From NCBI GenBank assembly GCA_026394025.1, contig JAPKZC010000317.1, positions 1 through 34,462 on the forward strand: DNA of 34,462 bases, in the 5' to 3' direction. Position 1 is the stretch's first letter, and each line of letters starts with the position of its first letter. Position numbers and translations under genes: made by a program. The notes beneath the pieces were generated by a model. That model ran no database searches, was not told where the DNA came from, and worked only from the letters and a program-made list of their open reading frames with translations. Origin of the DNA: Candidatus Solibacter sp. Lineage in GTDB: Bacteria; Acidobacteriota; Terriglobia; Bryobacterales; Bryobacteraceae. Shown piece after piece: positions 1 to 23,854 of this stretch.

Positions 1-1131
1 GGCGGTGTAACTGATCCGGTTGAGCCCACCTTGGATCAACTCGTGGGCCCGGCAACCTTTCACGTAGACAGTGACATCGCCGGCAAGCTCCCGGACCAGT
101 TCCGGGGACAGTTTGCGCAAGTTCACCGTTCCCATCCGCGGGCCGTGGGGACAGGCTTGAAAGCGTCCGGTCGATCTTTCGCGGGCCAATGGCTGCAGCC
201 ATGGCGATTCCAGGAATCGATCGACATCCTCGTAGGCCAGGTCATTCGCGTGCCTGCCCTTTTTCGGAACCAGCAGGATTGACAAGCCGGAGTACTCGAC
301 CAGCAAGCGTTGCATAAGTACGAGGTCGAACAGCGATTCGATATAGTCGTCGGTGAACCAAACCAGCCGGCGGTTCGATGCCGCTATCTCCGCGGCGAAT
401 GTGTCCCAGTGATCGACCGCGAGGCCGGCGCGGGCGATGCGCTGCAATTCCGCCCAGACCGGGCCGGCCGTGTTCCTTACCGCGCGGTCGGCGACCCCCG
501 CCAGTCGAATGCCCTCCACGGAAAATCCCGAGGCAGCCGCGGCGGCGCCCTTGAGGTCGAGACCGATCAGGCCCGCAGCGATACTGTACGCGAGAAGCTC
601 CTTGGTTGACGGGTTCGACCGCAGCATGTGGTCCTCGATGATCCGCGAGGCCAACTCGAAGCCAATCGTGTTGAACCGTTGATGCGTGTCCAGTTCCTTT
701 GCCGGATCGCCAAACAGGCAGTATGCAATGATCCTTCGGACGACGTCTGGCAGTTCCTGGTTGGTGATGCTCTCTGCGATCGGCGCGTCATGGTGCCGGC
801 AGGCGAGGAATCTGGCGGTTTCGGCGGCGCACGCATCCTCAAGTCCAGGCTCGGCGCCCGCCTCCAGCGCTCCACTCTCGCGCATGCGATCTAACTCCCC
901 GCAAACGATCTCGCGCATCCAGTCGATGCCCGTCGGCTCCGCCCCGCTCAGCGGCGCTCTGCCGTTCAGCCGGTCCGCCACCGTGAACGTGTCGGGGACG
1001 AAATCGGCGCGCGACAGAATCGCCAGGGCCGCGTCGGGGCCAGCCGAATCGTCGCACAGGAAGTGGCGCAGGTTCCGTTGGATGGAGTCGGTAGTCAGAG
1101 AGCGGATCGCCCTGCGTCCCTCTGCGCTCAT
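1..1131 (-). CDS. DUF89/ARMT1-like (damage-control-phosphatase-like) domain protein. Only the N-terminal 377 codons are visible; the ORF runs off the left edge and is absent from the supplied ORF track.
   Basis: Hand translation of the minus strand from ATG (1131..1129) gives 377 codons with no stop down to position 1: MSAEGRRAIRSLTTDSIQRNLRHF...LVWFTDDYIESLFDLVLMQRLLVEYSGLSILLVPKKGRHANDLAYEDV...GTVNLRKLSPELVRELAGDVTVYVKGCRAHELIQGGLNRISYTA. A GGAGGAA Shine-Dalgarno (reverse complement of 1136..1142) lies 4 nt upstream of the ATG. It is a clear paralog of residues ~510-725 of the TIR protein at 4854..7253. The D-D-Y-x-E / N-D-x-x-x-x-D / (K/R)G-x-x-x-(Y/H)E pattern resembles DUF89 motifs, recalled from memory and not searched. 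Confidence 0.6.
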   Translation of the reverse strand, partial: MSAEGRRAIRSLTTDSIQRNLRHFLCDDSAGPDAALAILSRADFVPDTFTVADRLNGRAPLSGAEPTGIDWMREIVCGELDRMRESGALEAGAEPGLEDACAAETARFLACRHHDAPIAESITNQELPDVVRRIIAYCLFGDPAKELDTHQRFNTIGFELASRIIEDHMLRSNPSTKELLAYSIAAGLIGLDLKGAAAAASGFSVEGIRLAGVADRAVRNTAGPVWAELQRIARAGLAVDHWDTFAAEIAASNRRLVWFTDDYIESLFDLVLMQRLLVEYSGLSILLVPKKGRHANDLAYEDVDRFLESPWLQPLARERSTGRFQACPHGPRMGTVNLRKLSPELVRELAGDVTVYVKGCRAHELIQGGLNRISYTA

Positions 1132-1165: not shown

Positions 1166-1744
1166 TCACGAGCCGGCACCGAATCTCAGCGGGTCATCGC
1201 CCGCGTTCAACAGATCGCCCACTCGCAGAAGCACGGCGCGATGCCCACCCGGGTCGTATACCGCTATGGACGGTCCGGGAAATCCTTCTTTGTCCAAAGG
1301 CACGAGCGTTCCAGGGTTGAGGGACAACGTGTTTCCAAAGCGCTCGATGGCGGGGCTGTGGTTGTGTCCGTGGCAGACCAGATCGTACTTACCGCTTGCC
1401 ACCAGTGCCTCGGTGATTTCATTGTGGTCGCCATGATAGATTGCGATGCGGCGGCCGAAGCTCTCGAAGGCAAGAAACCGATCCTGGATGGTTATGGCGA
1501 TGCCGAACTTGCCGGCATACTGGACATGCCGCACAGGGTCTCCGTCGTTGTTGCCAAATACCCCCATGATCTTGCACGGGAGGCCCTTGTAGTATTCGAG
1601 AGAGAACGGTGAGACCCAATCTCCGCAGTGAATCACCAAGGCAGCCTGCCGCTGCGCAAAGTAGCCGACAACCGCCGCGATATTCGCGATATGATCGTGC
1701 GTGTCCGACATGACTCCGATCAATAACCGAGATTCTTCTTCCAT
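1166..1744 (-). CDS. Metallophosphoesterase, YfcE/MJ0936 (Metallophos_2) family phosphodiesterase
   Basis: 192-aa ORF carrying the calcineurin-like motif series: GVMSDTHDH (D-x-H), HCGDW (G-D), GNND (G-N-H/N-D), HGD and GHNH. Its size is typical of MJ0936/YfcE-type enzymes. It lies 84 nt downstream of the NACHT gene and 34 nt upstream of the edge DUF89-like gene, on the same strand. Confidence 0.85.
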   Translation of the reverse strand: MEEESRLLIGVMSDTHDHIANIAAVVGYFAQRQAALVIHCGDWVSPFSLEYYKGLPCKIMGVFGNNDGDPVRHVQYAGKFGIAITIQDRFLAFESFGRRIAIYHGDHNEITEALVASGKYDLVCHGHNHSPAIERFGNTLSLNPGTLVPLDKEGFPGPSIAVYDPGGHRAVLLRVGDLLNAGDDPLRFGAGS

Positions 1745-1828: not shown

Positions 1829-4027
1829 CTAGCCTGCGGCCGCGCCCAGTGCCCGCAAGGCCTTTCGGGCCTCGTCCCTGACCTCGGGGTCTTTGTCGTC
1901 CGTAGCCAGTCCCAAAATATCCCGAGCGTTTGACCCTCCCAACTGCCATGCGGTCTGCACTACCGCTTTTCGCACGAGACTGATGGGATCTTTCATCGCC
2001 TGTTGCAGAACGGAGAAGGCAGCGACCCCTCCCAGACGGGCTAGCGCAAGCACCGAGTACTCGCGCACCTCCGGGTCGTCGTCGTGTAGAGCCCTATGCA
2101 ACAGGGTCGGACCCGCCCCCAGGGGGTCAATCATTTCGATCGCCCAGATCATGGAGCGCCGCACTCCGCCATCCGGTTCGTCGGCGAGACGCCCGGTCAG
2201 ATCCAGAGCATGATCCCGGGAGACTTCGCCCATCAGACCCAGCGCCACCGCGGCGTTCTGTCGAATAACTGGTTCGGTGGCGGAGTCTTTCAGACGCTCC
2301 AACAGCAGCCGTGAATCGGCCGGATTGCCCAATAGACCGAGCACAACCTCGGCGATACGGGAGACCCGCCTATCCTGTCCCGGCCTCCGTAGTGCCTCTC
2401 CGATGAGCTGCCTGGCCGCCGGCTCCCGATACCAGCCAAGTTCCATGATGGCCCGCCGCTTCTCCTCCGCCTCCGGGTGGTGCAGCAGGACAGCCCTGGC
2501 TTTTCCGGCCGCCGTTGCGCGGTCCGCGGCGGAACCGCGAAACGGCTGCCGGATCATGGCCCGCAGCGTCACCGCCGAGTTTCTGCGCAGTAGGGCGTAC
2601 TCCATCCCGGGGTAGTTCTCCAGGTAGCCGTGCAATCTCGCGCAACAATCCAGATTGTCCAACATCTGAGCCATGAAGTCGACCACGGCCGCGCCAGGCT
2701 GGACTTTGCTCAACTCCTTCGTGGCGCCCTCGGCATTCGCCAGCACCAGGCCGGCGAGGTGCCGTGCCATGAAATACTCGAGAAAGGACGTATGAACGAA
2801 TGTATAGCTGTCGGGCGGCGCTGCCACGAGAAACGAACAGGTGCCGATGTCATGCTTAAACGCATCCAACCCGGTGCCCGGCAGTGAGAAGCGGACCCGG
2901 AGCTTGTCGCGGATCGTCTTCCACGGAACGCAGTAGCTCCCTTGGAGGCCCATCTCCCACGCAAGTTCCGCCAGGAAAGACGTCTTGTCGTCACGGTCCA
3001 GTGTGGACCTGGAGTGTTGCGAGGCGATCCATTGGTCCGTGTAGGTTTCGTATAGCGCCGCCGAACTCACCGTTCCGGCGCCCAACTGGCCGCGCGTCTC
3101 CAGGATCATTTTCAGAAACAGGGGCGTGCGTGCGAGATCCTTCAGATCGTGGACCTCCGGAATCTCCCACTCCTGTTGGGTCACGGCCTTGATGTATTGC
3201 CTGATTTCCGCATCGGTCCACTTCCGGACCTGTACACGCGCGAAGTGTGCGAACTGGCTTGGCTCGACGCTATCCCGGAAGAAACTGTCGCGGCAGGATA
3301 GGATCAGATGCCCCTGCCGGGTTTGCGAGACAGCCAGTATCTTTTGCGCATTGCTCTGCACCTCGGCCCGGGTGGGACTGAGCGACATTTCGTCGAAGGC
3401 GTCGAGCACCAGCACGAGTTTCCCGGCCAAGCGTGCGTCGGCCAAGACATCGGTCTTCAAGACCACTCCATGCTTCATCAAAGTCCTGGCGACCAGCGCC
3501 GGCAGTGTCTCAGGGACGGCGCAGTCCTTGAGGCTGATGAAAATCGGTGTTCGGGACGCCGAATCCCCGGCCAGGCTCGCTTTCGCCAGTCGGTAAGTGT
3601 ACTCCCGGAGGAAGGTCGTCTTCCCTGTGCCAAAATACCCCAGCAGCAGGACGCATTTTGATTCGCTGGCGTGCTCGAAGAGGTCGTTGAAGCACGCGTC
3701 CAGGGATTCCCCGCCCTTGTAATCGGTTGTCGCGCTGACGTAAAGCTTGTGCTCCGGGCTCTGTTCCCATTCCGATACAAGATGTCTCAAGTACGGGCCG
3801 AAGCCCTGGGGGCGGAGGCGTTTATGACGGGAGATAAGAAGCATCAACGCGGTTGTCACCACAATCGCCACAACAGCGGCTGCGATCGCCCGCATTGGGT
3901 GTTTCTGAAAGAAGACAAGATAGGCTGCGCAGCCTGTGAGGAGTGCGCTCACGATCAAGCTCACGGTGAGCTTTTCGGGTATCTGCGCTCCGACCTTGCG
4001 TACCCACTGCCAGAATGTCACGGTCAC
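1829..4027 (-). CDS. Membrane-anchored STAND NTPase: two N-terminal TM helices, a NACHT-type P-loop NTPase, and C-terminal HEAT (PBS-lyase-like) repeats
   Basis: 732-aa ORF. Hydrophobic helices lie at about aa 21-40 (LTVSLIVSALLTGCAAYLVFF) and aa 46-66 (AIAAAVVAIVVTTALMLLI). Walker A is GYFGTGKTTF (aa 130-139) and Walker B is LVLVLDAFDEM (aa 204-214). A helical/winged-helix-like region follows. The last ~200 aa hold repeated D(P/K)xxxVRxxAxxALxxLG units (DDPEVREYSVLALARLGG, DPISLVRKAVVQTAWQLGG, DKDPEVRDEARKALRALG) typical of HEAT_2 repeats. Confidence 0.8.
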   Translation of the reverse strand: MTVTFWQWVRKVGAQIPEKLTVSLIVSALLTGCAAYLVFFQKHPMRAIAAAVVAIVVTTALMLLISRHKRLRPQGFGPYLRHLVSEWEQSPEHKLYVSATTDYKGGESLDACFNDLFEHASESKCVLLLGYFGTGKTTFLREYTYRLAKASLAGDSASRTPIFISLKDCAVPETLPALVARTLMKHGVVLKTDVLADARLAGKLVLVLDAFDEMSLSPTRAEVQSNAQKILAVSQTRQGHLILSCRDSFFRDSVEPSQFAHFARVQVRKWTDAEIRQYIKAVTQQEWEIPEVHDLKDLARTPLFLKMILETRGQLGAGTVSSAALYETYTDQWIASQHSRSTLDRDDKTSFLAELAWEMGLQGSYCVPWKTIRDKLRVRFSLPGTGLDAFKHDIGTCSFLVAAPPDSYTFVHTSFLEYFMARHLAGLVLANAEGATKELSKVQPGAAVVDFMAQMLDNLDCCARLHGYLENYPGMEYALLRRNSAVTLRAMIRQPFRGSAADRATAAGKARAVLLHHPEAEEKRRAIMELGWYREPAARQLIGEALRRPGQDRRVSRIAEVVLGLLGNPADSRLLLERLKDSATEPVIRQNAAVALGLMGEVSRDHALDLTGRLADEPDGGVRRSMIWAIEMIDPLGAGPTLLHRALHDDDPEVREYSVLALARLGGVAAFSVLQQAMKDPISLVRKAVVQTAWQLGGSNARDILGLATDDKDPEVRDEARKALRALGAAAG

Positions 4028-4149
4028 TCCCCACGCATCGTAACAAGCCCCGACTCGGGGCGCCAGCCCTCAGCCGGCATCGCCGGGATTTTAGGGCTCT
4101 ACAATCTGTTATTCGCCTGGGCTGTCCGGAAATCCCGTGTGCCGTTCGC

Positions 4150-4155
4150 TACAAT
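4150..4155 (+). promoter_or_regulatory. Possible -10 hexamer (TACAAT) placed for a leaderless or near-leaderless HAD-like transcript
   Basis: GCTACAAT ends 4 nt before the ATGATG at 4160..4165. A second CTACAAT sits at 4099..4105. The same CTACAAT box recurs upstream of the MFS gene (8893..8899). Based on the sequence motif only. Confidence 0.25.
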
Positions 4156-4159
4156 TCGG

Positions 4160-4639
4160 ATGATGTTGAACGTTGCGATTCCAGGTAGGGAGCCTCTGGT
4201 GTTACGCAGCCTCGCGCTCGATATCAACGGCACCCTGACCTGTGACGGTCGCTTGCTTCCCGGAGTGCGGGCCTCCATCAAACGCCTCAAACAGCAGTTG
4301 GACGTTTGCCTGATTTCTTGCGATTCGCGCGGCAACGCGCGAGCCATTGCCAAGTCTCTGGCGGTTCCCTTGCACGTCGTGGCATATCACCGCCGCGGCG
4401 AAGCTTTCGGCAAACTCGCCGTTCTACGTAGGCTGGGGCCGTCGGCTACCGCGGCCATCGGCAACGGCGAATCTGACCGCCTGATGTTCGAGGAGGCCGC
4501 CCTGAGCATCGCCGTTCTTGGGAAAGAGGGCGCGGCTGGAACGGCGCTGATGAACGCGGCCGTAGTCGTGCGCGACATCGCCGACGCGTTTGACCTGCTC
4601 CTGCACCCAGCCCGCCTGATTGCGACGCTTCGATGCTAG
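4160..4639 (+). CDS. Small HAD-superfamily protein, soluble P-type-ATPase-like (COG4087-like)
   Basis: This is the C-terminal 159 aa of ORF 3671..4639, starting at the in-frame ATGATG at 4160. The upstream part of that ORF is antisense to the NACHT gene and looks non-coding. Motifs: LALDINGTL (HAD motif I, D-x-N instead of D-x-D/T), CLISCDSRG (motif II-like S/T), GNGESD (degenerate G-D-G-x-N-D). The size matches stand-alone COG4087 proteins. Confidence 0.6.
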   Translation: MMLNVAIPGREPLVLRSLALDINGTLTCDGRLLPGVRASIKRLKQQLDVCLISCDSRGNARAIAKSLAVPLHVVAYHRRGEAFGKLAVLRRLGPSATAAIGNGESDRLMFEEAALSIAVLGKEGAAGTALMNAAVVVRDIADAFDLLLHPARLIATLRC

Positions 4640-4853
4640 GGCGGTATCGCCGTTGCCACGTCCATACCGGCGGAACTCGCCGCCACAACCGGGGAGTTTG
4701 CGACCCTTGCCACCGCCAATCTGCCGTTCATCCGCCAAGGCTTGGTCGAAATCCTGATGTCGCCGCCGCCTCTTGCCCGCATCGCCCACGTGGTCCGGGG
4801 CGGTCCGAACCTGTATAAACTCAGTGGCTGGATTGCGCACGTCCTGGTGGCGG

Positions 4854-7253
4854 TTAGGGCGCCATGCTGGCCCGGATTCCCGCCCAGCGATCCCGATCGT
4901 CCGCAACCGTCCTGGCCGCCAGTTGTTTGCCCCCTTCGATTCTCAGGTGGCGTTCCTTGAATCCCTTGAATGATCGATCTCCGGGCTGATGGACAATGTA
5001 CACAAAAGGCTTCTCCTCCGCCCGGAGCCCCGTAACCGATTCGCTGAAATCCCGGCACACCATAAACCCAAAGTACGCTTCCTTCTTGACCCCCTGCAAC
5101 ATCTCATAGTTCCGGGCCCCGCGTACATCGATCGCCGTACACGTCCGCAACAGGTCCACAATACCTGGGTGAAGCTTCCGTAGATTCACCCCTCCTAACT
5201 TGGGACCGTTGGGTTCCACGATGAAACGCGGGCAGTCCTTCAGGCACTCGAAATGTTCGACCATCTCCTTCACGTCGTTGAATGAAGCATCGTTACTGCA
5301 CCGCATGGACCTCGGGACGAGATGGATCTCTAGATGCGGGAATTGGCGCAGCAGTTCCTCGTAGTACCGGAGCAGAACGATCGTCTCCAGGTAGTCGTCG
5401 GAGAACCCGACCAACGTGAAATCGCGGTGCCGTTTCTCGATCCCCGTAAGAAACGCGTCGGTCGCATCGATGCGGCAAGGCGACTTTGATAACTGCCACA
5501 GTTCTTCGGCTACCCTCTGCACTTCCTGCGCGCGGACCTCGCCTTTCCGGTCCAACTGGATCCCGCTGCCCTCCACAATCTGCGACGTAGCCGCATGGGT
5601 CGGCTTCTCGTCAACACCCAATAAGCCCGCCGCTACCGAAAGGTGCAGCCATTCCCGAATTCCGAGTTTGTAGTGTCGTGTAAGGTAGTCCAACACCTCG
5701 AACAGAAAGTCCCGCCGCAACGAAGTCAGGGCCGGATAGAGGTCCAGTTCCCGATCGGGATCGTTCGTGAGGAAGGTCAGCAGGAGTCGCCGCAATATGT
5801 CCGAGTACTCCTGATACCAGATCTCCTTCTTCAACGATTCTTGCGGGCCCGGAGGATCGAAGTTCAGGGTCTCGAGCACGTTTCGGACGGCCCCGCCCCA
5901 CGCCGGACTCCGGGCAAGCGCGGGGCAGGCCCGGGCAATCACTTTCATGTCGTCCTCGAGAATCCCGCGCACCCAGGGGTCGAAGTCCAACGCCGGCGAA
6001 AGGAAGGGCGCCTGAACCGAAACCGCGTCAATCGTGTTTGTTCCCGCCTCGTAACCCGAGTCAATAAGATCGGAACCCCCGGCCAAACGTTCTTTCGTGT
6101 CCTGGTAACCCAGGATCACGCGGCGCACGTGCGTCCAGCAGTTGAGGTCCGGTCTGCAACAGCGAGTGCTCAGGCAGTTCCCCAGCATGGTCGCCACACG
6201 GCAGTTCCCCCAGTCGTCGTTGTAGTGACCGGCTTGGATCAGGGGTATGGCGGTGGACGATTCCAGCATCTGGGAAACCGAGCCGGCGATGGAGTCGAAC
6301 CACTTCCGGGCGTTGCCATCATCACTGCGGCTCAGTTTGAACTCCGGCACCGCTCCAGCATCTTCGCCATAGAGGTAGAGGCTGACGTAGCATGTCTCGC
6401 CATCGACAAGGATGGTACGAAAACGCGGCATGTAGTCCGTGAGATAGGCGTGAAAGAGGGGCGGCTGCTCGTGGTATTCGGCGATTGTCTTTAAGAAGTC
6501 GATACTGGCCTCGCTACGGCTCCTAAGGGGGTGAAATGGTTCGTGAGCGCGAGCGTAATTGCTGTGCGGATTCAGGAGCATCAGCGTGACGGTGACTCCA
6601 CGGTCGAACAGTTCACCTAAAGCCTTTCGCACCCGGGCGTCGCGAGCAAACCGATCAAGGGCAAGACCCCAAACAGTCAACGAAGATCGAGCCGTGAGCA
6701 TGATCTCGTGCAAATCGGCAAGTTCCGGAACCGGCGGAGCCTGCGGCCATTCGCCGGTGACACCCCACACCAGCCTTCTGAGGCTTTGTTCGTACTCTTC
6801 GTCCTTTCGGAAATCGACCCATTGCAGGATCTGGAGGAACTCGGGCAGTTGGGCATCGCGTAGCAGCACAGGGATTATCCTCGGGGGCTCGTCGGCATCG
6901 TTCATCGACACAAGCGCCCGATTGTACTCGGTCATCACCCAGCGGGAGCCCACAGATTCGGGTGAACAGATCAGAACCACCGCCCGACTTGTTTTCAGCC
7001 CATTTCCTAGTGCTTCAACGAAGAGATCCCCAGGACGGATTTGATCCCGGTCCAGCCAGACGCGCAGGCCCTGCGCCGCCAACCGCTCCTTGAGCCGCTT
7101 CGTCCACACCTCATCGCGGCTGTTGTAGCTCAGAAAGACATCGAAATCGAATCGCGTGGAACAGAGCAAAACGTAACACCCTTCAGGATCGGGCACAATG
7201 CCCACTTCGATGAATTGCCCCACCCGGCATATTCCGTCCGCCGGCGAGAGCAA
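4854..7253 (-). CDS. TIR domain protein fused to a PLD-like/unknown middle domain and a C-terminal DUF89/ARMT1-like phosphatase-like domain
   Basis: 799-aa ORF; the start is uncertain, with TTG at 7253 and several in-frame GTG/TTG codons before aa 30.
- TIR, aa ~36-167 (nt ~6753..7148): FDVFLSYNSRDEVWTKRLKERLAAQGLRVWLDRDQIRPGD...VLICSPESVGSRWVMTEYNRAL, with Glu109 at the position of the catalytic Glu of TIR NADases.
- Middle domain, aa ~178-340.
- Cys-rich stretch, aa 351-375: CRVATMLGNCLSTRCCRPDLNCWTH.
- DUF89-like region, aa ~430-760: FSDDYLE (nt 5385..5405), VPRSMRCSNDASFNDV, IDVRGARNYEMLQG. Confidence 0.8.
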   Translation of the reverse strand: MLSPADGICRVGQFIEVGIVPDPEGCYVLLCSTRFDFDVFLSYNSRDEVWTKRLKERLAAQGLRVWLDRDQIRPGDLFVEALGNGLKTSRAVVLICSPESVGSRWVMTEYNRALVSMNDADEPPRIIPVLLRDAQLPEFLQILQWVDFRKDEEYEQSLRRLVWGVTGEWPQAPPVPELADLHEIMLTARSSLTVWGLALDRFARDARVRKALGELFDRGVTVTLMLLNPHSNYARAHEPFHPLRSRSEASIDFLKTIAEYHEQPPLFHAYLTDYMPRFRTILVDGETCYVSLYLYGEDAGAVPEFKLSRSDDGNARKWFDSIAGSVSQMLESSTAIPLIQAGHYNDDWGNCRVATMLGNCLSTRCCRPDLNCWTHVRRVILGYQDTKERLAGGSDLIDSGYEAGTNTIDAVSVQAPFLSPALDFDPWVRGILEDDMKVIARACPALARSPAWGGAVRNVLETLNFDPPGPQESLKKEIWYQEYSDILRRLLLTFLTNDPDRELDLYPALTSLRRDFLFEVLDYLTRHYKLGIREWLHLSVAAGLLGVDEKPTHAATSQIVEGSGIQLDRKGEVRAQEVQRVAEELWQLSKSPCRIDATDAFLTGIEKRHRDFTLVGFSDDYLETIVLLRYYEELLRQFPHLEIHLVPRSMRCSNDASFNDVKEMVEHFECLKDCPRFIVEPNGPKLGGVNLRKLHPGIVDLLRTCTAIDVRGARNYEMLQGVKKEAYFGFMVCRDFSESVTGLRAEEKPFVYIVHQPGDRSFKGFKERHLRIEGGKQLAARTVADDRDRWAGIRASMAP

Positions 7254-7467
7254 TCATTGAGGCGGTGATGCAGTCTCCATGCGGGCCGCGCACCGGATGA
7301 GCGCGGGATTACAGGCTTTGGCGCGATGCCGCTCAAGTCGAGGTGCTATCCCGTCGGAGGCGAACTCCTATTCGAAATGGATGAAGAACCACCCGAAGAA
7401 ATGCTCTGTGACCCTGGCGGCCTCCCTCTTCCTGTTTGAGAAACCGCCCGCGCGAGTTGCCCCCGGC

Positions 7468-8805
7468 CTACGCCGCCTTCGGCATCGCTACCGTCTTCGA
7501 CTGCAACCCCGCCTTGGCCAGCGCGTAGTAGACCACGAACCCCACGATGAAGCTGTACACCACCGCCGGCTGCACGTACGATTTCGTTTCCGGCGAGAGC
7601 GTGATCGGTAGCACATCCAGCGGCAGTATGCCCACGATGAAGCCCACCGCCCAGGCGATGTAGCCCGCCATATTCACGCCTTCCCTCGGACCGCTCCACT
7701 TCTTGCCCGCCAGCAGATAGTCCGCCACCATGGCCCCGATGATCGGTCCGAAGCTGGCGCCCACAATCGTGAAAAACCCAATCAGGTTGGCCGCCACGCC
7801 CGTGATCGCCAGCAGAACTCCCACCGCCGCCGCCGCCATTGTGCTGGACACGCGCGGCACGCTCGGAATCATCGTATTGAAACTATTGCCCGCTATGAAC
7901 GCGCAGAAGCACGAAGCCGGAATCGATGCGATCGCGAACAGGAACAGCATCGCCGAAGCGATCGGCCCGCCGATGGCCTGCACCACTTCGCCGAAATCCC
8001 AGCTCTGCGTTAATCCGCTGCCGTGGGCTCCCGCCACCGCCAGAAGCGGCAGCCCGCCGGCCACCAGCACGGCCAGCGTGATGCCCACCAGCCCGCCCCA
8101 CCGCACGTCCCTTTCATCGCGCGCGTTCATTCCGAAATCCGCCCCCGCCGCGCCCGCCGTGGCGAAGAATCCGATCACGATGGCGATCATCGTGGTGAAT
8201 GCGCCGAATGAATTCTCCTGCGCCGCCGCCACCTGATAGTTGCTGATCCCGCCCGAGGTCTGAAAGAAGACCACCAGCAGCATCAGCAGCGGAATCGCAT
8301 TCAGAAACAGGGCGATCTTGGACACATACTGCACCCCTTTCGCGCCCGCAAATGCCATGGCGCCGCCCCACAGCACGCACACGATTCCGAAGGACAGCGT
8401 GCCCGGCTTCGACGCCATCCCCATTCCCCGCAGAATGTAATCGGCGGAGAAGAACGTGCCTACCGCGAACCACCCAATCTGCAATACACCCATCAGCAGC
8501 CCGGGCATCACGTAGCCGCCGGCCGTGCCGAAGGTGGAACTGCCCACCACGTACAGCGGGAACCCGGTTTTCATCCCAAGCATAGCCGGAACCCGATAGT
8601 ACAAGGCATAGCTCAGGATTCCAGCCACAGCCAGCGCGACCAGGCATAGCGCCAGTCCGCCATGTTGCAGCGTTCCTCCCGCCATCTGTTGATAGAAGGC
8701 GATCCAGAGAAAAATTCCGGCATAAGTAGGCGCGGTATTGGCATACCACGGCGCGCGTTTCCCCATCGGGTTGGGCACTGCTTTAGCAAGGTAGTCTGGC
8801 AACAT
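7468..8805 (-). CDS. Purine-cytosine/NCS1-type permease-like transporter (about 12 TM)
   Basis: 445-aa, highly hydrophobic multi-TM ORF (...APWYANTAPTYAGIFLWIAFYQQMAGG...GFPLYVVGSSTFGTAGG...). The overall pattern resembles CodB/CytX-like NCS1 permeases. The family call is from memory; the transporter call is solid. Confidence 0.7.
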   Translation of the reverse strand: MLPDYLAKAVPNPMGKRAPWYANTAPTYAGIFLWIAFYQQMAGGTLQHGGLALCLVALAVAGILSYALYYRVPAMLGMKTGFPLYVVGSSTFGTAGGYVMPGLLMGVLQIGWFAVGTFFSADYILRGMGMASKPGTLSFGIVCVLWGGAMAFAGAKGVQYVSKIALFLNAIPLLMLLVVFFQTSGGISNYQVAAAQENSFGAFTTMIAIVIGFFATAGAAGADFGMNARDERDVRWGGLVGITLAVLVAGGLPLLAVAGAHGSGLTQSWDFGEVVQAIGGPIASAMLFLFAIASIPASCFCAFIAGNSFNTMIPSVPRVSSTMAAAAVGVLLAITGVAANLIGFFTIVGASFGPIIGAMVADYLLAGKKWSGPREGVNMAGYIAWAVGFIVGILPLDVLPITLSPETKSYVQPAVVYSFIVGFVVYYALAKAGLQSKTVAMPKAA

Positions 8806-8905
8806 GGCTCTTCCTTTTTAAATTCCGAATTGTGGATCTGAAGCGGCCAGTATACTACACGGCAGTTCACAACTCTGCCCCCCTGGGAACTGCTACAATC
8901 CAATT

Positions 8906-8921
8906 CATGCCTTCAGGCATG
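8906..8921. promoter_or_regulatory. Inverted repeat CATGCC-TTCA-GGCATG just downstream of a TACAAT box (8894..8899) in the divergent NCS1/MFS intergenic region; operator-like
   Basis: Perfect 6-bp arms with a 4-nt spacer, read directly. It sits where a transcription start for the MFS gene (start 8948) would be expected. Confidence 0.3.
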
Positions 8922-8947
8922 TTCGCTTTTCCGAATAATACCCAATC

Positions 8948-10153
8948 GTGATCCGCCGGGTCTTCAAAGCTTTTCAATATCGCGACTTCCGCCTGATGTG
9001 GATGGGCGCCTGCACGTCCAGCATCGGTACCTGGATGCAGATCGCCGCCCAGAGCTGGCTCGTCCTCAAGCTCTCCAACTCGCCCTTTCTGCTCGGCCTC
9101 GATGCCTTCCTCGGCGGCATCCCCATTTTTCTCTTCTCCCTGGTCGGCGGCGTCGTGGCGGACCGCATCGAACGCCGTAAGGTTCTGCTGATTTCGCAAT
9201 GCGTGCAGATGGGCGCCGCCTTCCTGCTCACTGCTCTCATCGGATTCCGTCTCGTCCAGGTCTGGCAGATCCTCTGCCTGTCGTTTATCACCGGCCTCGC
9301 CCAGGCATTCGGCGGGCCCGCCTACCAGGCCCTCATTCCCACCCTGGTCAGTAAAGAAGATATGCCGAACGCCATTGCCCTGCAATCCATTCAGTTCAAT
9401 GTGGCGCGCGTGATTGGTCCCGCGCTGGGCGGCATCGCCCTCACCCAGTTGGGCGAAATGTGGTGCTTCGGACTCAACGGCCTCTCCTTTTTTGCCCCCA
9501 TCATCTCCCTCCTCATGCTCAAGACGCGCTTCTATCCGCGGAAAACCTCGGAATCGATTCTCGCCGGCATGAAGCAGGGCATTGCCTTCATCCGCAACCA
9601 GAGCGCCATGGAAGCCCTCATGGTGCTGGCGTTCTGCATGACGGCCCTGGGTGTGCCCATGATGACCTTCCTCCCGGTCTTCGCCAAAGACATTTTCCAC
9701 CAGGGTCCCGGCATGTTTACCTTGTTCCTCTCCGTCTCCGGCGTCGGTTCCATCGTGGGCGCGCTCACCGTCGCCGCCCTTGGCAATGTGCGCCATAAGG
9801 GACGCATCGCCCTCATCATGCTCACCTGCCTCGGCGCCGGCATCTCGGGATTCGCCCTCTCCACCTCGGTTTGGTTGAGTTGCACGATGCTGTTTCTCTC
9901 CGGAGCATCCCTGATTGCCGTCTTTACCCTGGTCAATTCGCTGGTCCAACTCATCACCACCAACGAAATGCGCGGCCGCGTGATGAGCGTCTACAACTTT
10001 TCCTTCCGCGGCGGCATGCCCATGGGAAACCTGTTGACCGGCTGGCTCGTCCCACTCTTTTCGGCCCCCCTCGTGCTCGCCGTGAACGGTCTCGTCCTCA
10101 TGGCTGTGGCAGTGTATTTCCTCGCGGTGCAACGGCGGGTCGCCGCTCTCTGA
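8948..10153 (+). CDS. MFS transporter (EntS/MFS_3-like)
   Basis: 401-aa ORF. The N-terminus FKAFQYRDFRLMWMGACTSSIGTWMQIAAQSWLVLKLSNSPFLLG...GGVVADRIERRKVL is characteristic of the MFS_3/enterobactin-exporter-like family, with about 12 hydrophobic segments. Confidence 0.85.
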   Translation: MIRRVFKAFQYRDFRLMWMGACTSSIGTWMQIAAQSWLVLKLSNSPFLLGLDAFLGGIPIFLFSLVGGVVADRIERRKVLLISQCVQMGAAFLLTALIGFRLVQVWQILCLSFITGLAQAFGGPAYQALIPTLVSKEDMPNAIALQSIQFNVARVIGPALGGIALTQLGEMWCFGLNGLSFFAPIISLLMLKTRFYPRKTSESILAGMKQGIAFIRNQSAMEALMVLAFCMTALGVPMMTFLPVFAKDIFHQGPGMFTLFLSVSGVGSIVGALTVAALGNVRHKGRIALIMLTCLGAGISGFALSTSVWLSCTMLFLSGASLIAVFTLVNSLVQLITTNEMRGRVMSVYNFSFRGGMPMGNLLTGWLVPLFSAPLVLAVNGLVLMAVAVYFLAVQRRVAAL

Positions 10154-10174
10154 TGTAATAGAGGAGTCGCACTC

Positions 10175-10846
10175 ATGCTCGCCATATTCATCGCCGCATT
10201 CATGGCCGCCGCCGCGCCTTCCCCCCTCGAGGTGGCCCGCGATAAGCAGGATCGCACCACATTGACGGACCTCGCCGCCCAATTCAGCGCCGCCGCCGTC
10301 AAGGCGCCCGACGATCCCGACGCCCAATACCGCGCCGCCCTCGCCAATTGTTATCTCGCCGAGGTGGCCATCGAACTGCGCGATCGCAAAGCCGGCCGCC
10401 AGTTCGCCGAGCAGGGCATCCGGTTCGCCGAGAAGGCCGTGGCCCTCAAACCCGCCAACGCCGAGCACTATCGCCTCCTCGGCACCCTCTACGGCCAGGC
10501 CGTCACCGATATCATGAGCGGCCTCACCTACGGCCCCAAGGCCAAGGAAGCCATCAACAAGGCCGTCGAGAAGGCGCCCAAGTCTTCTATGATGTATGTC
10601 GCTCGCGGCGTCGGCAACTACTATGTCCCAGCCCAACTCGGCGGCGGCGCCAAGCTCTCCATCCCGGATTTCCAGAAGGCCATCGAAATCGATCCCAAAA
10701 ATGCCGAAGCCTGGCTCTGGCTCGGCATCGGCCTCCGCAAGGAGAATCGCGACGCCGAGGCCCGCCAGGCGTTCGCCAAATCGCTGGAGCTCAACCCCAA
10801 CCGCGCCTGGGCCAAACAGCAATTGGAGAAGACCCCGGCGAAATGA
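10175..10846 (+). CDS. Exported TPR-repeat protein
   Basis: 223-aa ORF with an N-terminal hydrophobic signal (MLAIFIAAFMAAAAPSP). TPR-like repeats end in ...DPKNAEAWLWLGIGLRKENRDAEARQAFAKSLELNPN. Its stop overlaps the next start (ATGA at 10843..10846). Confidence 0.75.
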   Translation: MLAIFIAAFMAAAAPSPLEVARDKQDRTTLTDLAAQFSAAAVKAPDDPDAQYRAALANCYLAEVAIELRDRKAGRQFAEQGIRFAEKAVALKPANAEHYRLLGTLYGQAVTDIMSGLTYGPKAKEAINKAVEKAPKSSMMYVARGVGNYYVPAQLGGGAKLSIPDFQKAIEIDPKNAEAWLWLGIGLRKENRDAEARQAFAKSLELNPNRAWAKQQLEKTPAK

Positions 10847-16318: not shown

Positions 16319-17635
16319 CTACACCGGCTGCCGCGTTTGCCACTTGCCGCGGGTGAAATCCGGGAATTTCTGCGGCGCGCTGCCATTGGCCACACTCGCC
16401 TCGCTGAGCGGGATGGGGGCGCTCCAGGCGGCGGCGTCGTAGACATCGATATCCGGCGCGAGGCCCAGCTTCATGCACTCCACCAGGCGATATGCCATCA
16501 CGAAATCCATGCCGCCGTGGCCGCCCAGTTCCTTCGCCATCTCGCCGATCCTCTTCCACAACGCGGGCTCGTATTTCTCCTTGTACAAATCGAGCGATTC
16601 GAACGCCTCGCGCCGCGCCCCGTCGATGTAGACGCGCGCCGGATAGTCGCGGAAGATGCCCTTGGTGCCGGCGATCAGGTTGATGCGGTCGTAGGGTTGC
16701 GGGCTGCTGACGTTGTGCTCAAGCTCCAGCACGCGTCCCTTCACGGTGCGGATCAGGCTGACGTTGAAATCGCCTTCCTTGTAGACTTCCTTCTGGCGCG
16801 GGTCGTCCGCGGCGAGTTTCTCCTTACGGTACGCTTGCAGCCCCGCCGAAATGGAGCTCATGGAGACCAGCGTGTCGAAGCGGTCGCCGCGGTTGACGTC
16901 CATGTAGTGCGCCACCGGACCGAGTCCGTGAGTGGGGTAGAGGTTGCCGTCGCGGTTGAGGTGCTCGGCGCGGCGCCAGAGCCCTTCGCCCTGGCTGGAG
17001 AAAAGAATGCCGCGCAAATCGTGGTTGTAGGCGGCGCCCCCGTGTGTCAGCTCGCCGAACAATCCGGCGCGCACCATATTGAGCACCATCATTTCGTTGT
17101 AGCCGTAGCAGCAGTTTTCCAGCTGGATGCAATGCCGCTGGGTGGCCTCGCTGGTGTTGACCATGTCCCAGCACTCTTCCATGGTGCGCGCGGCGGGCAC
17201 TTCGATGGCGACGTGCTTGCCCTGCTTCATGCCGGCCACCGCCATGGGAACATGCCAGACCCAGGGTGTGGCGATCACCACCAGATCGATATCGTCGCGC
17301 TTCAGCAAGCCTTCGAACGCGCGGTCGTCGGAGTGAAACAGCGCGATGGGCTGCGAGGCCTTACCTGCTTTGTCCAACCTGGCCTGCGTGCGGAGCACCT
17401 TGTCCTTGACCGTGTCGCACAGCGCGGTGATCTGCACGCCGGGGACCGAGGAGAAGTTATCCACCAGCGAATTACCGCGGCCGCCGGTTCCGATGACGCC
17501 GATGCGCACCCTCTCCTTGGGGTCAAACTTCATATCCGCGACGCTTTTGGCCGCGGATTGCGGCCGCGCCAGGGCCGCGCCGAGCGACCCGAGCCCGGCC
17601 AGTTTCAATAAGTCGCGTCGTGAAGAATTCTCCAT
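16319..17635 (-). CDS. Tat-exported Gfo/Idh/MocA-family NAD-binding enzyme, GH109-like (alpha-N-acetylgalactosaminidase-like glycosidase)
   Basis: 438 aa. It has a twin-arginine signal (SRRDLLKLAGLGSLGAALA) and a Rossmann motif (RIGVIGTGGRG). The C-terminal ...GGHGGMDFVMAYRLVECMKLGLAPDIDVYDAAAWSAPIPLSEASV resembles GH109 enzymes, recalled from memory. Confidence 0.75.
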   Translation of the reverse strand: MENSSRRDLLKLAGLGSLGAALARPQSAAKSVADMKFDPKERVRIGVIGTGGRGNSLVDNFSSVPGVQITALCDTVKDKVLRTQARLDKAGKASQPIALFHSDDRAFEGLLKRDDIDLVVIATPWVWHVPMAVAGMKQGKHVAIEVPAARTMEECWDMVNTSEATQRHCIQLENCCYGYNEMMVLNMVRAGLFGELTHGGAAYNHDLRGILFSSQGEGLWRRAEHLNRDGNLYPTHGLGPVAHYMDVNRGDRFDTLVSMSSISAGLQAYRKEKLAADDPRQKEVYKEGDFNVSLIRTVKGRVLELEHNVSSPQPYDRINLIAGTKGIFRDYPARVYIDGARREAFESLDLYKEKYEPALWKRIGEMAKELGGHGGMDFVMAYRLVECMKLGLAPDIDVYDAAAWSAPIPLSEASVANGSAPQKFPDFTRGKWQTRQPV

Positions 17636-22567: not shown

Positions 22568-23854
22568 ATGACATCACCAAACAACCCTTTACGGGATATC
22601 GAAATGAGCACGCTGGGTAACGGCGTGCGCGTAGTTACCGAGGTCATGCCCCACGTGCGCAGCGTGTCGGTGGGGATCTGGATTGGCTCGGGCTCGCGGC
22701 GGGAATCGACGGAGCAGAATGGCATCGCGCACTTTATCGAGCACATGCTGTTCAAAGGCACCACTAGCCGGTCGGCCGAGGACATCGCGCGCGCGGTGGA
22801 CGCGCTGGGCGGAAACCTGGACGCCTTCACGGCGAAGGAACTGGTGTGTTTCAATACCAAGGTGCTGGATCAGCACCTGTCGCAAGCCTTCGACGTACTG
22901 GCGGACCTGGTGCTGCACCCGATGTTCCGGGAAGAGGATATCGAGAAGGAAAAGGGCGTCATCCTGGAAGAAATCAAGATGGAGGAGGACTCGCCGGACT
23001 ACCTGGTTCACGAGATCTTCTCGGCTAATTTCTGGAAAGATCACGCGCTGGGCAAGCCGATCCTGGGCACGCCGCATAGCGTGCGCCGCTTTGACAGCAC
23101 CATGGTGCGGGATTTCTACAATGCGGTTTACGCGCCGGCGAACCTGCTGGTGACGGCGGCCGGAAACCTGACCCACGAGGGGCTGACGACGCTGGTGAGG
23201 CAGCACTTCGAAGGGCTGCCCAAGGGCGATGCGGCGCCCGCGGAGCAGGTTCCGAGCACGCACGCCCGGATTGCCCTGCGCAATAAGAAATCGTTGGAGC
23301 AGGTGCACCTCTGCCTGGGGGTTCCGTCGTACCCGCTGCCGCACCATGACCGGTTTGCCTGCTACGTGTTGAACACCCTGCTGGGGGGAGGGATGAGTTC
23401 GCGCCTGTTCCAGAATATCCGCGAGCGGCAGGGGCTGGCCTATTCGGTGTTCAGCGAACTAAGCCCCTATCGGGACACGGGCTGCCTCTCCATTTATGCC
23501 GGGACAAGCGTGGAATCGGCGCGCAAAGTGGTGGAGTCCATCACCAGGGAATTCCGCGATCTCAAAGAGCGGCAGGTGAGCGATGAGGAGTTGCGGCGGG
23601 CCAAGGACCACCTCAAGGGTTCGCTGATGTTGGGTCTGGAATCGACGGGTAGCCGCATGTCGAACCTGGCGCGGCAGGAAATGTACTTCGGCAGGTTCTT
23701 CACCCTCGACGAGTTGCTGGAAAGCATCGAAACCGTGACCGCGGGCGACGTGCGGCGCATTGCGCGGACATTTTTCGACCCCAAGCAGATCGCGCTGACA
23801 ATTCTGGGCAATCTGGAGAAGTTCAAAATCGGCCGGGACGACCTGGCCTGCTGA
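22568..23854 (+). CDS. M16-family (pitrilysin/insulinase-like) zinc peptidase
   Basis: 428 aa. It has the inverted zinc motif HFIEH within GIAHFIEHMLFKGT and the downstream E of the M16 signature. An alternative start is at MSTLGNG (22604). Confidence 0.85.
   Translation: MTSPNNPLRDIEMSTLGNGVRVVTEVMPHVRSVSVGIWIGSGSRRESTEQNGIAHFIEHMLFKGTTSRSAEDIARAVDALGGNLDAFTAKELVCFNTKVLDQHLSQAFDVLADLVLHPMFREEDIEKEKGVILEEIKMEEDSPDYLVHEIFSANFWKDHALGKPILGTPHSVRRFDSTMVRDFYNAVYAPANLLVTAAGNLTHEGLTTLVRQHFEGLPKGDAAPAEQVPSTHARIALRNKKSLEQVHLCLGVPSYPLPHHDRFACYVLNTLLGGGMSSRLFQNIRERQGLAYSVFSELSPYRDTGCLSIYAGTSVESARKVVESITREFRDLKERQVSDEELRRAKDHLKGSLMLGLESTGSRMSNLARQEMYFGRFFTLDELLESIETVTAGDVRRIARTFFDPKQIALTILGNLEKFKIGRDDLAC

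Follow-up and report, generated by a model that had tools for sequence, protein, structure and literature searches.

The subject of this analysis is a minus-strand gene at positions 4854-7253 of a 34,462-nucleotide stretch of DNA from Candidatus Solibacter sp. (contig JAPKZC010000317.1, assembly GCA_026394025.1; the whole stretch is called the window here). The gene encodes, in a single polypeptide, a TIR domain, a phospholipase D (PLD)-like module, a four-cysteine (Cys4) knuckle and a DUF89-like module (Table 1). TIR effectors are common to bacterial, plant and animal immunity; the way in which they are switched on varies and is the least understood part of their biology. The protein looks like a TIR-effector protein of defence type carrying regulatory modules not previously linked to such effectors, and its family looks both rare and undescribed.

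Table 1. Positions of the features discussed in the window, and of PurM-like/GT4 regions at loci of homologues
Feature	Position	Strand	Basis
Open reading frame with TIR, PLD-like, Cys4 knuckle and DUF89-like parts, without a methyltransferase	4854..7253	-	Open reading frame, Pfam, homologue alignments
TIR domain, residues 39-162 of the open reading frame	6768..7139	-	Pfam TIR_2, E = 1.8e-31
Single-lobe PLD-fold module, no catalytic His/Lys	6204..6719	-	AlphaFold2 model, Foldseek, conservation
Cys4 knuckle C-x4-C-C-x5-C-W at the PLD-like/DUF89-like junction, candidate Zn site	6135..6176	-	Conservation
DUF89 (ARMT1-like) module, D-D clade	4869..6038	-	AlphaFold2, Foldseek, profile match, hhalign, clade conservation
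SDDYLE (Asp nucleophile position; Asp for canonical Asn)	5385-5402	-	hhalign
N-D pair	5289-5294	-	hhalign
R-G-A-R-N-Y-E (Arg for canonical Lys)	5103-5123	-	hhalign
Weak HAD-like open reading frame, status uncertain	4070..4639	+	Pfam Hydrolase, 1.4e-5, just under cut-off
NACHT-HEAT STAND NTPase with hydrophobic N-terminus, next downstream	1829..4027	-	Pfam NACHT, HEAT_2
Metallophos_2 (calcineurin-like) phosphoesterase	1166..1744	-	Pfam, 9.6e-28
Second DUF89-like gene, D-D clade, cut by the left end of the window	1..1131	-	Own profile, 3e-46; Pfam ARMT1-like, 36 bits (cut-off 25)
PurM-like/GT4 region, locus L001	10940-13493		
PurM-like/GT4 region, locus L008	2232-4504		
PurM-like/GT4 region, locus L022	8518-11603		
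PurM-like/GT4 region, locus L041	4179-9460		

The gene is one unbroken open reading frame (ORF) running from 7253 to 4854, with 799 codons counted from a TTG and a stop codon at 4854-4856; a plus-strand reading of the interval was rejected, its translation being riddled with stops. The start is uncertain. Candidates are the TTG at 7253, the GTG at 7223 (ten codons in, the choice of the gene caller, yielding the 789-residue protein P0001) and the TTG at 7169, which has GAAGGG just before it and agrees with the start point of homologues. Domain content is identical whichever of the three is used. Two numberings appear below: that of the 799-codon ORF for Glu109 and the cysteines, and that of P0001 for H187, D609 and similar residues. 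Along the ORF, FDVFLSY begins at residue 37 and SLTVWG at residue 191, CRVATML...CWTH spans residues 351-375, and SDDYLE occupies residues 618-623. The residue numbers of an earlier, sequence-only reading of this DNA fit this scheme within about 1-13 residues, and its four domain calls (TIR, PLD-like/DUF5919-like, Cys cluster and DUF89-like with D-D) all proved right. A promoter and terminator scan of 3900-7600 gave nothing exceeding shuffled expectation. A word-indexed protein search retrieved ~20 full-length homologues, with 31-57% identity and the identical domain order, so the arrangement is not a product of chance.

Domains of the TIR protein

The N-terminal domain scored 109.6 bits against Pfam TIR_2, for which the cut-off is 28. 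Glu109 (nt 6927-6929) lies within the motif W-V-M-T-E, which in phmmer sequence alignments to solved TIR domains pairs with WCLDE of RUN1 and WTNYE of AbTIR; we take the paired Glu residues of these two proteins (E100 and E208, respectively) to be the catalytic ones. Of 41 TIR domains adjoining a PLD-like module of this family, 37 retain the Glu. On these alignments the domain is predicted to be of the NAD+-consuming type, in keeping with the sequence-only reading, which had described a textbook TIR_2-type domain with a catalytic-type Glu109. Matches to the PADLOC and NCBIfam defence models were confined to the TIR segment, including weak matches to ThsB models. One homologue, P0014, has Gly at the position of the catalytic Glu, an intact chassis of PLD-like, DUF89 and methyltransferase modules, and an extra metallophosphoesterase domain at its C-terminus, a layout that reads as if the effector role had shifted.

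The second module was recognized by its fold. An AlphaFold2 model based on 19 homologues has a high-confidence core, and Foldseek matched it to structures of the PLD superfamily (E = 5e-6 to 1e-3), including vaccinia F13, bacterial PLD, PssA, Nuc, Zucchini and NucT as well as the non-catalytic TrmB/TrmBL2 and FAM83. A search of PDB sequences with the PLD-like profile gave no meaningful match, and only fold comparison succeeded. The HxK(x)4D catalytic motif is not present in the module. The sole segment with HxKxxxxD spacing is R-F-R-T-I-L-V-D (nt 6402-6425), which lies on a beta-strand of the model and, from its spacing and strand, would be equivalent in position to that motif. The earlier description of a PLD-like or DUF5919-like module without HxK thus agrees with the fold, and Pfam DUF5919 gives weak matches in 6 of 19 family members (best E = 2.8e-5); the window copy scores 12.6 bits (E = 0.12) against a cut-off of 23.5.

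Across 55 proteins, the module carries a signature of its own, G-H-T-L, N-P, A-H..H..E, Y-x-P-R-F-R-x4-D and Y-x-Y-G-x-D, and in the window copy, family-conserved H187, T188 and E234 are replaced by L, A and R. The HExxH-like string AHEPFH was considered as a zincin site and rejected: four homologues have Ala, Gln or Asp in place of its Glu, and the model shows a loop there. With the C-terminal domain of TrmB/TrmBL2, the DUF1669 domain of FAM83 and Pfam DUF5919, the module shares a single-lobe PLD fold without the HxK pair. It differs from them in its conserved signature, in reaching no Pfam cut-off and in being joined to death effectors rather than to DNA-binding domains. Because the fold is non-catalytic, its relatives bind ligands or partners, and the conserved polar signature is dense, we regard this pseudo-PLD pocket, by analogy, as the strongest ligand-binding candidate in the protein.

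Between the PLD-like and DUF89-like modules, residues 351-375 hold five Cys and one His, as the sequence-only reading had listed. Conservation narrows this cluster to C360, C365, C366 and C372, which are kept in 19, 19, 16 and 16 of 21 homologues, respectively, and to the Trp that follows; the first Cys and the His are not conserved. The Cys4 cluster is restricted to proteins that have DUF89 after the PLD-like module, and is absent from relatives in which a methyltransferase follows that module without DUF89. The knuckle has low confidence in the AlphaFold2 model.

The C-terminal fold is unambiguously DUF89 in structure prediction. The module was modelled with a predicted local distance difference test score of 93.4, and the top 20 Foldseek matches in the PDB were all DUF89 proteins (E = 9e-12 to 1e-4), with PH1575 (2g8l) at E = 9e-12 and a target TM-score of 0.71. 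PH1575 was also the sole match of the family profile among PDB sequences. Against Pfam ARMT1-like, the window domain reached 21.5 bits, under the cut-off of 25; its relatives in what we call the D-D clade, including the second DUF89-like gene of the window, pass that cut-off at 31-50 bits. The fold and the SDDYLE motif of the earlier DUF89-like call therefore stand, and its size does not: the module covers ~390 residues rather than ~330.

Alignment with hhalign pairs S-D609-D610 with T-D-N of PH1575, N644-D645 with N-D, and R701-G-A-R-N-Y-E with K-G-Q-G-N-F-E. A HMMER alignment that had placed the DUF89 D-N on V-G was superseded by this pairing. In Schizosaccharomyces pombe Duf8901, the Asp nucleophile is also a metal ligand, the Asn touches both metal and phosphate, a second Asp binds metal and a Lys acts as phosphate clamp; changing the nucleophile from D to N abolishes activity, and the N249A variant is inactive (PMC9062747). 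D609 and D645 map by hhalign to D248 (nucleophile and metal ligand) and D286 (second metal-binding Asp) of Duf8901. Set against characterized structures, as the sequence-only reading had proposed, the module thus keeps the Asp nucleophile and the N-D pair and has Asp for the Asn. Neither the canonical Asn of D-N nor the Lys clamp of K-G-x-x-N-[YF] is found in the window domain.

These substitutions are shared. The D-D clade comprises 131 sequences and is recognizable by D-D, N-D and [K/R]-G-x-R-x-x-E. Among its members, D609/D610 are conserved at 85-99%, N644-D645 at 88-99%, G702 at 100% and E707 at 91-98%, with D610 in place of Asn clade-wide (91-99%). Every PLD-fused member has Arg at position 701; 72% of the stand-alone members, among them the second gene of the window, have Lys. 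Given this motif conservation across the clade, D-D for D-N is the hallmark of a selected subfamily rather than a mark of decay. From this pattern, the most likely function of the module is that of a working phosphohydrolase with a small phospho-metabolite as substrate. It shares fold, motif order, the Asp at the nucleophile position, the N-D pair and G-x-x-x-[YF]-E with known DUF89/ARMT1-like phosphatases (PH1575, 2G8L; AF1104, 2FFJ; At2g17340, 1XFI; yeast YMR027W, 5F13; S. pombe Duf89/Duf8901, 7T7K/7U1X). It differs from them in having D-D for D-N, Arg for Lys in PLD-fused members, an additional N-terminal helical region, and the Cys4 knuckle. It is also fused to TIR and PLD-like parts, and usually to a methyltransferase, whereas known DUF89 proteins either exist on their own as housekeeping enzymes or are fused to PanK4.

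Architectures and neighbourhoods of the family

A full HMMER scan of 1.84 billion representative proteins with a PLD-plus-DUF89 profile returned 422 matches, of which 204 retrieved proteins were annotated with our own module profiles and Pfam. The PLD-like module occurs in ~55 representatives, ~40 of which have a TIR domain. The most frequent arrangement with this module is TIR-PLD-DUF89-methyltransferase (17, plus 2), followed by TIR-PLD-methyltransferase without DUF89 (13), PLD-DUF89 with another or unrecognized N-terminus (10), the TIR-PLD-DUF89 arrangement of the window (5) and PLD-DUF89-methyltransferase (4). Another 17 proteins are DUF89-methyltransferase fusions and 86 are DUF89 alone. 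Two loci depart from the usual order: at L045 (9220-12308), TIR, PLD-like and methyltransferase parts precede a separate or trailing DUF89 with a canonical-looking K-G, and at L012 (9872-12943) the TIR domain stands at the C-terminal end of a PLD-DUF89-methyltransferase protein. TIR also occurs as a separate gene adjoining stand-alone DUF89-methyltransferase genes (L017/L042 and L037).

Pattern scans located 9 loci in 185,579 species genomes and 23 further loci in metagenomes. The nine genome loci span Aminicenantes, UBA2214, Zixibacteria, Anaerolineales, Chloroflexi, Chlorobium and Thiohalocapsa. Phage and plasmid collections held no full-length relative, only TIR matches and one TIR-PLD protein, and no relative was found in phages. 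The TIR-PLD protein, a minimal form of 330 residues, is encoded on a plasmid of a cultured bacterium, Rhodoferax antarcticus (NZ_CP019242.1; L048, 6941-7933), and its annotation says no more than TIR protein; genes for a metallophosphoesterase and a HAD-domain protein are located ~5.5-7 kb upstream on that plasmid. Public annotation of family members consists only of 'TIR domain-containing protein' or 'SAM-dependent methyltransferase', and the database survey called for by the sequence-only reading shows an architecture that is rare and not already annotated with a known role. In the literature searched, DUF89/ARMT1 and DUF5919 are nowhere connected with TIR or defence.

The N-terminal position of the family is interchangeable. 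Its TIR slot is taken by a trypsin-like protease in P0012, which has a Trypco1 gene upstream, by a PNP_UDP nucleosidase (PNP_UDP_1) in P0062 and by transmembrane segments in P0021 and P0018; P0148, a TIR-PLD-methyltransferase relative without DUF89, has an additional N-terminal caspase. As these are exchanged at one position, the TIR domain is most likely the effector of the protein.

The same observations bear on the proposal that the protein is a pathway enzyme, in which TIR makes a nucleotide from NAD(P)+ and DUF89, with the methyltransferase in relatives, processes the product into a matured signal or a form that blocks NAD+ re-synthesis during infection. Such a pathway would agree with the dominance of TIR among partners of the PLD-like module, with separate TIR genes beside stand-alone DUF89-methyltransferase genes and the C-terminal TIR of L012, with the intact DUF89 catalytic motifs, and with the methyltransferase, which is of a small-molecule type whose nearest PDB relatives are phosphoethanolamine N-methyltransferases. 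We consider it unlikely, however, given chassis that carry trypsin, a PNP nucleosidase or transmembrane segments for TIR, and a related chassis with a caspase in addition to TIR. TIR-PLD-methyltransferase proteins and the minimal TIR-PLD form do without DUF89, and P0014 lacks the TIR Glu and keeps its chassis. The coupling of NAD cleavage or cyclization to dephosphorylation, suggested by the sequence-only reading, is disfavoured on the same grounds, because a protease or membrane segment cannot supply a nucleotide to a phosphatase.

Most relatives, including the closest homologue P0002 (57% identity), carry a C-terminal S-adenosylmethionine (SAM)-dependent methyltransferase, and the window protein ends exactly at the boundary where they enter it. 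No remnant was found by tblastn across the window, and a frameshifted or split methyltransferase was rejected for want of any such trace. It could be argued that the gene is a decaying, non-functional relic of a four-domain ancestor, which has lost its methyltransferase and key pocket residues; the substitutions H187L, T188A and E234R do hit highly conserved positions. This seems very unlikely, as the 799 codons contain no frameshift or internal stop and all catalytic-type residues of the TIR and DUF89 domains are kept. The window gene departs from the family at 9 of 163 conserved columns (5.5%), which lies within the 2.7-10% seen among family members. Forms without a methyltransferase also turn up independently in further lineages (P0063, P0066, P0069 and about ten others), and a paralogous DUF89 gene, perhaps with a methyltransferase, lies 3.7 kb downstream. 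By these measures, the gene looks alive.

Homologues often sit among defence genes. Their neighbours include MmeI-type restriction-modification, GmrSD and AbiEii genes; BrxC/D-like, Cas4-like and DNA methylase genes; GT4-conflict, PRTase-CE and ORC-CDC6-like genes; and TIR-RyR, ThsB-like, SLATT and TIR-NB-ARC genes. The partner domains of the family, DUF89, class I methyltransferase, GT4 and AIRS/PurM-like, are all small-molecule enzymes, and locus L001 contains a gene that combines a weak Nuc_deoxyrib_tr match with a methyltransferase. Combined with the loci that have no defence neighbours, this could point to small-molecule or nucleoside biosynthesis or modification outside immunity, with a TIR-like fold serving as N-glycosidase in a secondary-metabolite or modified-nucleotide pathway. 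We see little probability in this, since the TIR position can be occupied by protease, caspase or transmembrane domains, since Trypco1, GT4-conflict, restriction-modification, GmrSD, AbiE, STAND and SLATT genes are neighbours, and since a rare and patchy distribution over unrelated phyla is typical of mobile defence genes.

One neighbourhood pattern concerns the chemistry of the chassis. PurM-like (AIRS) and GT4-conflict genes adjoin only members in which DUF89 is absent or its nucleophile is mutated. Among members without DUF89, this applies to P0141, which has the genes next to it, and to the fusion P0179; one protein of the family has the arrangement PLD-methyltransferase-GT4. Mutated members with both genes are P0020 (PSTLLS), P0009 (PGDYLA and SNE) and the protein of L041 (PNDYIE); the nucleophile position is S, G or N in L001, L022 and L041. 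Counting loci whose flanks reach at least 2.5 kb in each direction, PurM-like and GT4 genes adjoin 3 of 3 nucleophile-mutated members and 0 of 11 with intact D-D (Fisher p = 0.003). This pattern speaks for the importance of DUF89 catalysis and for PurM-like with GT4 as an alternative enzymatic back-end.

It also bears on the view that DUF89 has lost its phosphatase activity, through D-N to D-D and Lys to Arg, and gates the TIR domain by binding a phospho-ligand. The Asn that is essential in Duf8901 (N249A inactive; PMC9062747) is Asp here and the Lys is Arg, the window domain falls under the Pfam cut-off, and three homologues tolerate loss at the nucleophile position. We nevertheless rate a lost activity as quite improbable. 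D-D is conserved at 97-99% in 96 stand-alone members, and these residues together with the Lys (72%), N-D and E707 form an active-site pattern, while the coincidence of nucleophile loss with PurM-like and GT4 genes suggests a function that is compensated rather than dispensable. The sequence-only reading had offered a non-catalytic ligand sensor gating TIR: its placement of a regulatory region fits, and 'non-catalytic' does not agree with the motif conservation. The candidate for non-catalytic ligand binding is the PLD-like module, and the members with a mutated nucleophile are those with PurM-like/GT4 neighbours.

The family resembles multi-domain conflict systems whose effectors can be exchanged, as surveyed in the work that defined Trypco1 and GT4-conflict (Kaur et al. 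2020, eLife, PMC7159879; 2021, eLife, PMC8195603). Points in common are TIR, caspase and trypsin with Trypco1 as effectors, the GT4-conflict family as neighbour or fusion, and a rare, patchy distribution. Those systems are built on NTPases (STAND, MoxR-vWA and AP-GTPase), whereas the core here is a PLD-like module and a methyltransferase, with either DUF89 or PurM-like and GT4. DUF89 and PLD go unmentioned in both papers; methyltransferases are absent from PMC7159879 and appear in PMC8195603 only in unrelated contexts (histone methyltransferase complexes).

The downstream island

Three genes downstream of the TIR gene on the same strand, overlooked in the sequence-only reading along with the absent methyltransferase, encode a NACHT-HEAT protein, a metallophosphoesterase and a second DUF89-like protein. 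The NACHT-HEAT protein is 24% identical over 640 residues (E = 2e-22) to a NACHT-HEAT protein encoded two genes upstream of P0020, in the same operon (L001, 3732-6551). The small family to which the window protein belongs (8 close homologues) has swappable N-termini, including trypsin and Mrr. The hydrophobic N-terminus in the window is probably a two-helix segment, and homologues carry ~150-200 extra residues there. NACHT-HEAT as a universal partner was rejected: among 47 loci it was found only in the window and at L001/L002, plus a HEAT protein on the contig of P0113. A metallophosphoesterase, the product of the next gene, is also what is fused to the C-terminus of P0014.

The second DUF89-like gene, 3.7 kb downstream of the TIR gene, has the motifs TDDYIE, AND and KGRHE, and its product shares 30% identity with the corresponding module of the TIR protein. 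It is most closely related to DUF89-methyltransferase proteins of ~715 residues (P0113, 43% identical, P0161, P0126 and P0111), so a methyltransferase may lie just beyond the window, after this gene. The metagenomic contig of P0113 encodes a HEAT protein, a Metallophos_2 protein and a DUF89-methyltransferase, the order seen in the window. Two related units therefore stand next to each other in the window, and the methyltransferase missing from the first may come from the second.

Third codon positions of the TIR and NACHT genes have a GC content of 0.71-0.75, lower than the 0.80-0.85 of flanking housekeeping genes (GH109, M16 peptidase and permease, including 16319-17635 and 22568-23854), which would fit an islet gained by horizontal transfer. 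The HAD-like ORF, in the 830 bp that separate the TIR gene from the NACHT gene, has a coding-like pattern of GC over codon positions; P0108 also has a weak HAD-like segment, ahead of a DUF89-methyltransferase. Elsewhere in the window, long ORFs overlap on opposite strands at 8867-10822 (minus) and 8948-10153 (plus); codon-position GC favours the plus strand, and the minus-strand ORF has no Pfam match.

A sensor-effector interpretation

The interchangeable N-terminus, the set of domains found there and the neighbourhoods of homologues suggest a single-chain sensor-effector of the biological-conflict (anti-phage or abortive-infection) type, with TIR as effector and a ligand-handling chassis behind it. 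We give this reading an even chance of being correct. It has precedents among bacterial TIR NADase effectors (AbTIR, ThsB of Thoeris, TIR-SAVED, TIR-STING, retron-TIR and TIR-pAgo), which likewise have an N-terminal TIR_2 domain with a catalytic-type Glu; effector and sensor in one polypeptide and homologues in defence islands are further points of likeness. The sensor, however, is not SAVED, STING, SLOG, a STAND NTPase, Argonaute or a reverse transcriptase. Unlike in Thoeris, no ThsA-like partner (SIR2-, transmembrane- or Macro-SLOG) adjoins the gene, whose neighbours are the permease, NACHT-HEAT, Metallophos_2 and DUF89-like genes. Unlike single-chain defence proteins of the STAND/NLR type (Avs, bNACHT), the TIR protein has no P-loop module, and NACHT-HEAT is a separate gene downstream.

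The domain identities, the conserved catalytic residues, the exchangeable effector slot and the defence-type surroundings are observed; what the ligand is, which way control runs and how neighbouring genes take part we infer in the following scheme. The N-terminal TIR domain would be the NAD+-consuming effector. The dead PLD pocket, with RxRxxxxD for HxKxxxxD and its conserved His, Tyr, Asp and Arg, would bind a phosphate-containing small molecule or a sugar, and the D-D DUF89 module, as a competent metal-dependent phosphohydrolase, would turn over the same ligand or a related phospho-metabolite. The Cys4 knuckle would form a third piece of this regulatory chassis, and the methyltransferase would probably be supplied in trans by the neighbouring operon of NACHT-HEAT, Metallophos_2 and DUF89, the last perhaps with a methyltransferase. 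In an uninfected cell the enzyme module would hold the level of the ligand low; on infection the ligand would build up, or the enzyme would be blocked. The PLD-like pocket would then fill and the protein self-associate, forming composite TIR active sites that would deplete NAD+.

Several points weigh against this scheme. The roles of the PLD-like module as binder and of DUF89 as turnover enzyme are assigned by analogy; the DUF89 site has Asn to Asp and Lys to Arg, and its residues were mapped by profile alignment. With its three pocket substitutions and missing methyltransferase, the window copy may work differently or less well than its relatives. The exclusion of PurM-like/GT4 genes by an intact nucleophile rests on three independent loci, a small sample. 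NACHT-HEAT adjoins 2 (perhaps 3) of ~15 distinct loci with usable flanks, which co-location in islands could explain. Loci without defence neighbours also exist, such as L019 and L013, the latter adjoining rpoC.

A wider proposition, which we put forward tentatively and regard as possible rather than probable, is that the PLD-like/DUF89/methyltransferase chassis represents a new class of enzyme-coupled immune receptor, in which a metabolite set-point controls interchangeable death effectors. The pseudo-PLD module would gauge the amount of a phosphorylated sugar or nucleotide metabolite, which the D-D DUF89 and methyltransferase would clear continuously. Effectors would be TIR, caspase, trypsin, nucleosidase or membrane domains, and DUF89 and the PurM-like/GT4 pair would serve as interchangeable back-ends. 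In certain genomes, that of the window among them, the receptor would be wired to an operon of NACHT-HEAT, metallophosphoesterase and DUF89-methyltransferase. If true, the 'metabolite damage-control' DUF89 family would gain its first role in immunity.

The family joins TIR and other death effectors to a D-D DUF89 phosphatase, a pseudo-PLD pocket and a small-molecule methyltransferase, none of them tied to immunity in the literature searched. The mutual exclusivity of an intact DUF89 nucleophile and adjacent PurM-like and GT4 genes provides a testable handle on the chemistry, and the relative on the Rhodoferax antarcticus plasmid, being in a cultured host, makes experiments feasible. If the chassis does sense or clear a metabolite, it would represent a new way to detect infection through metabolism, and a second biological role for the poorly understood DUF89 family.

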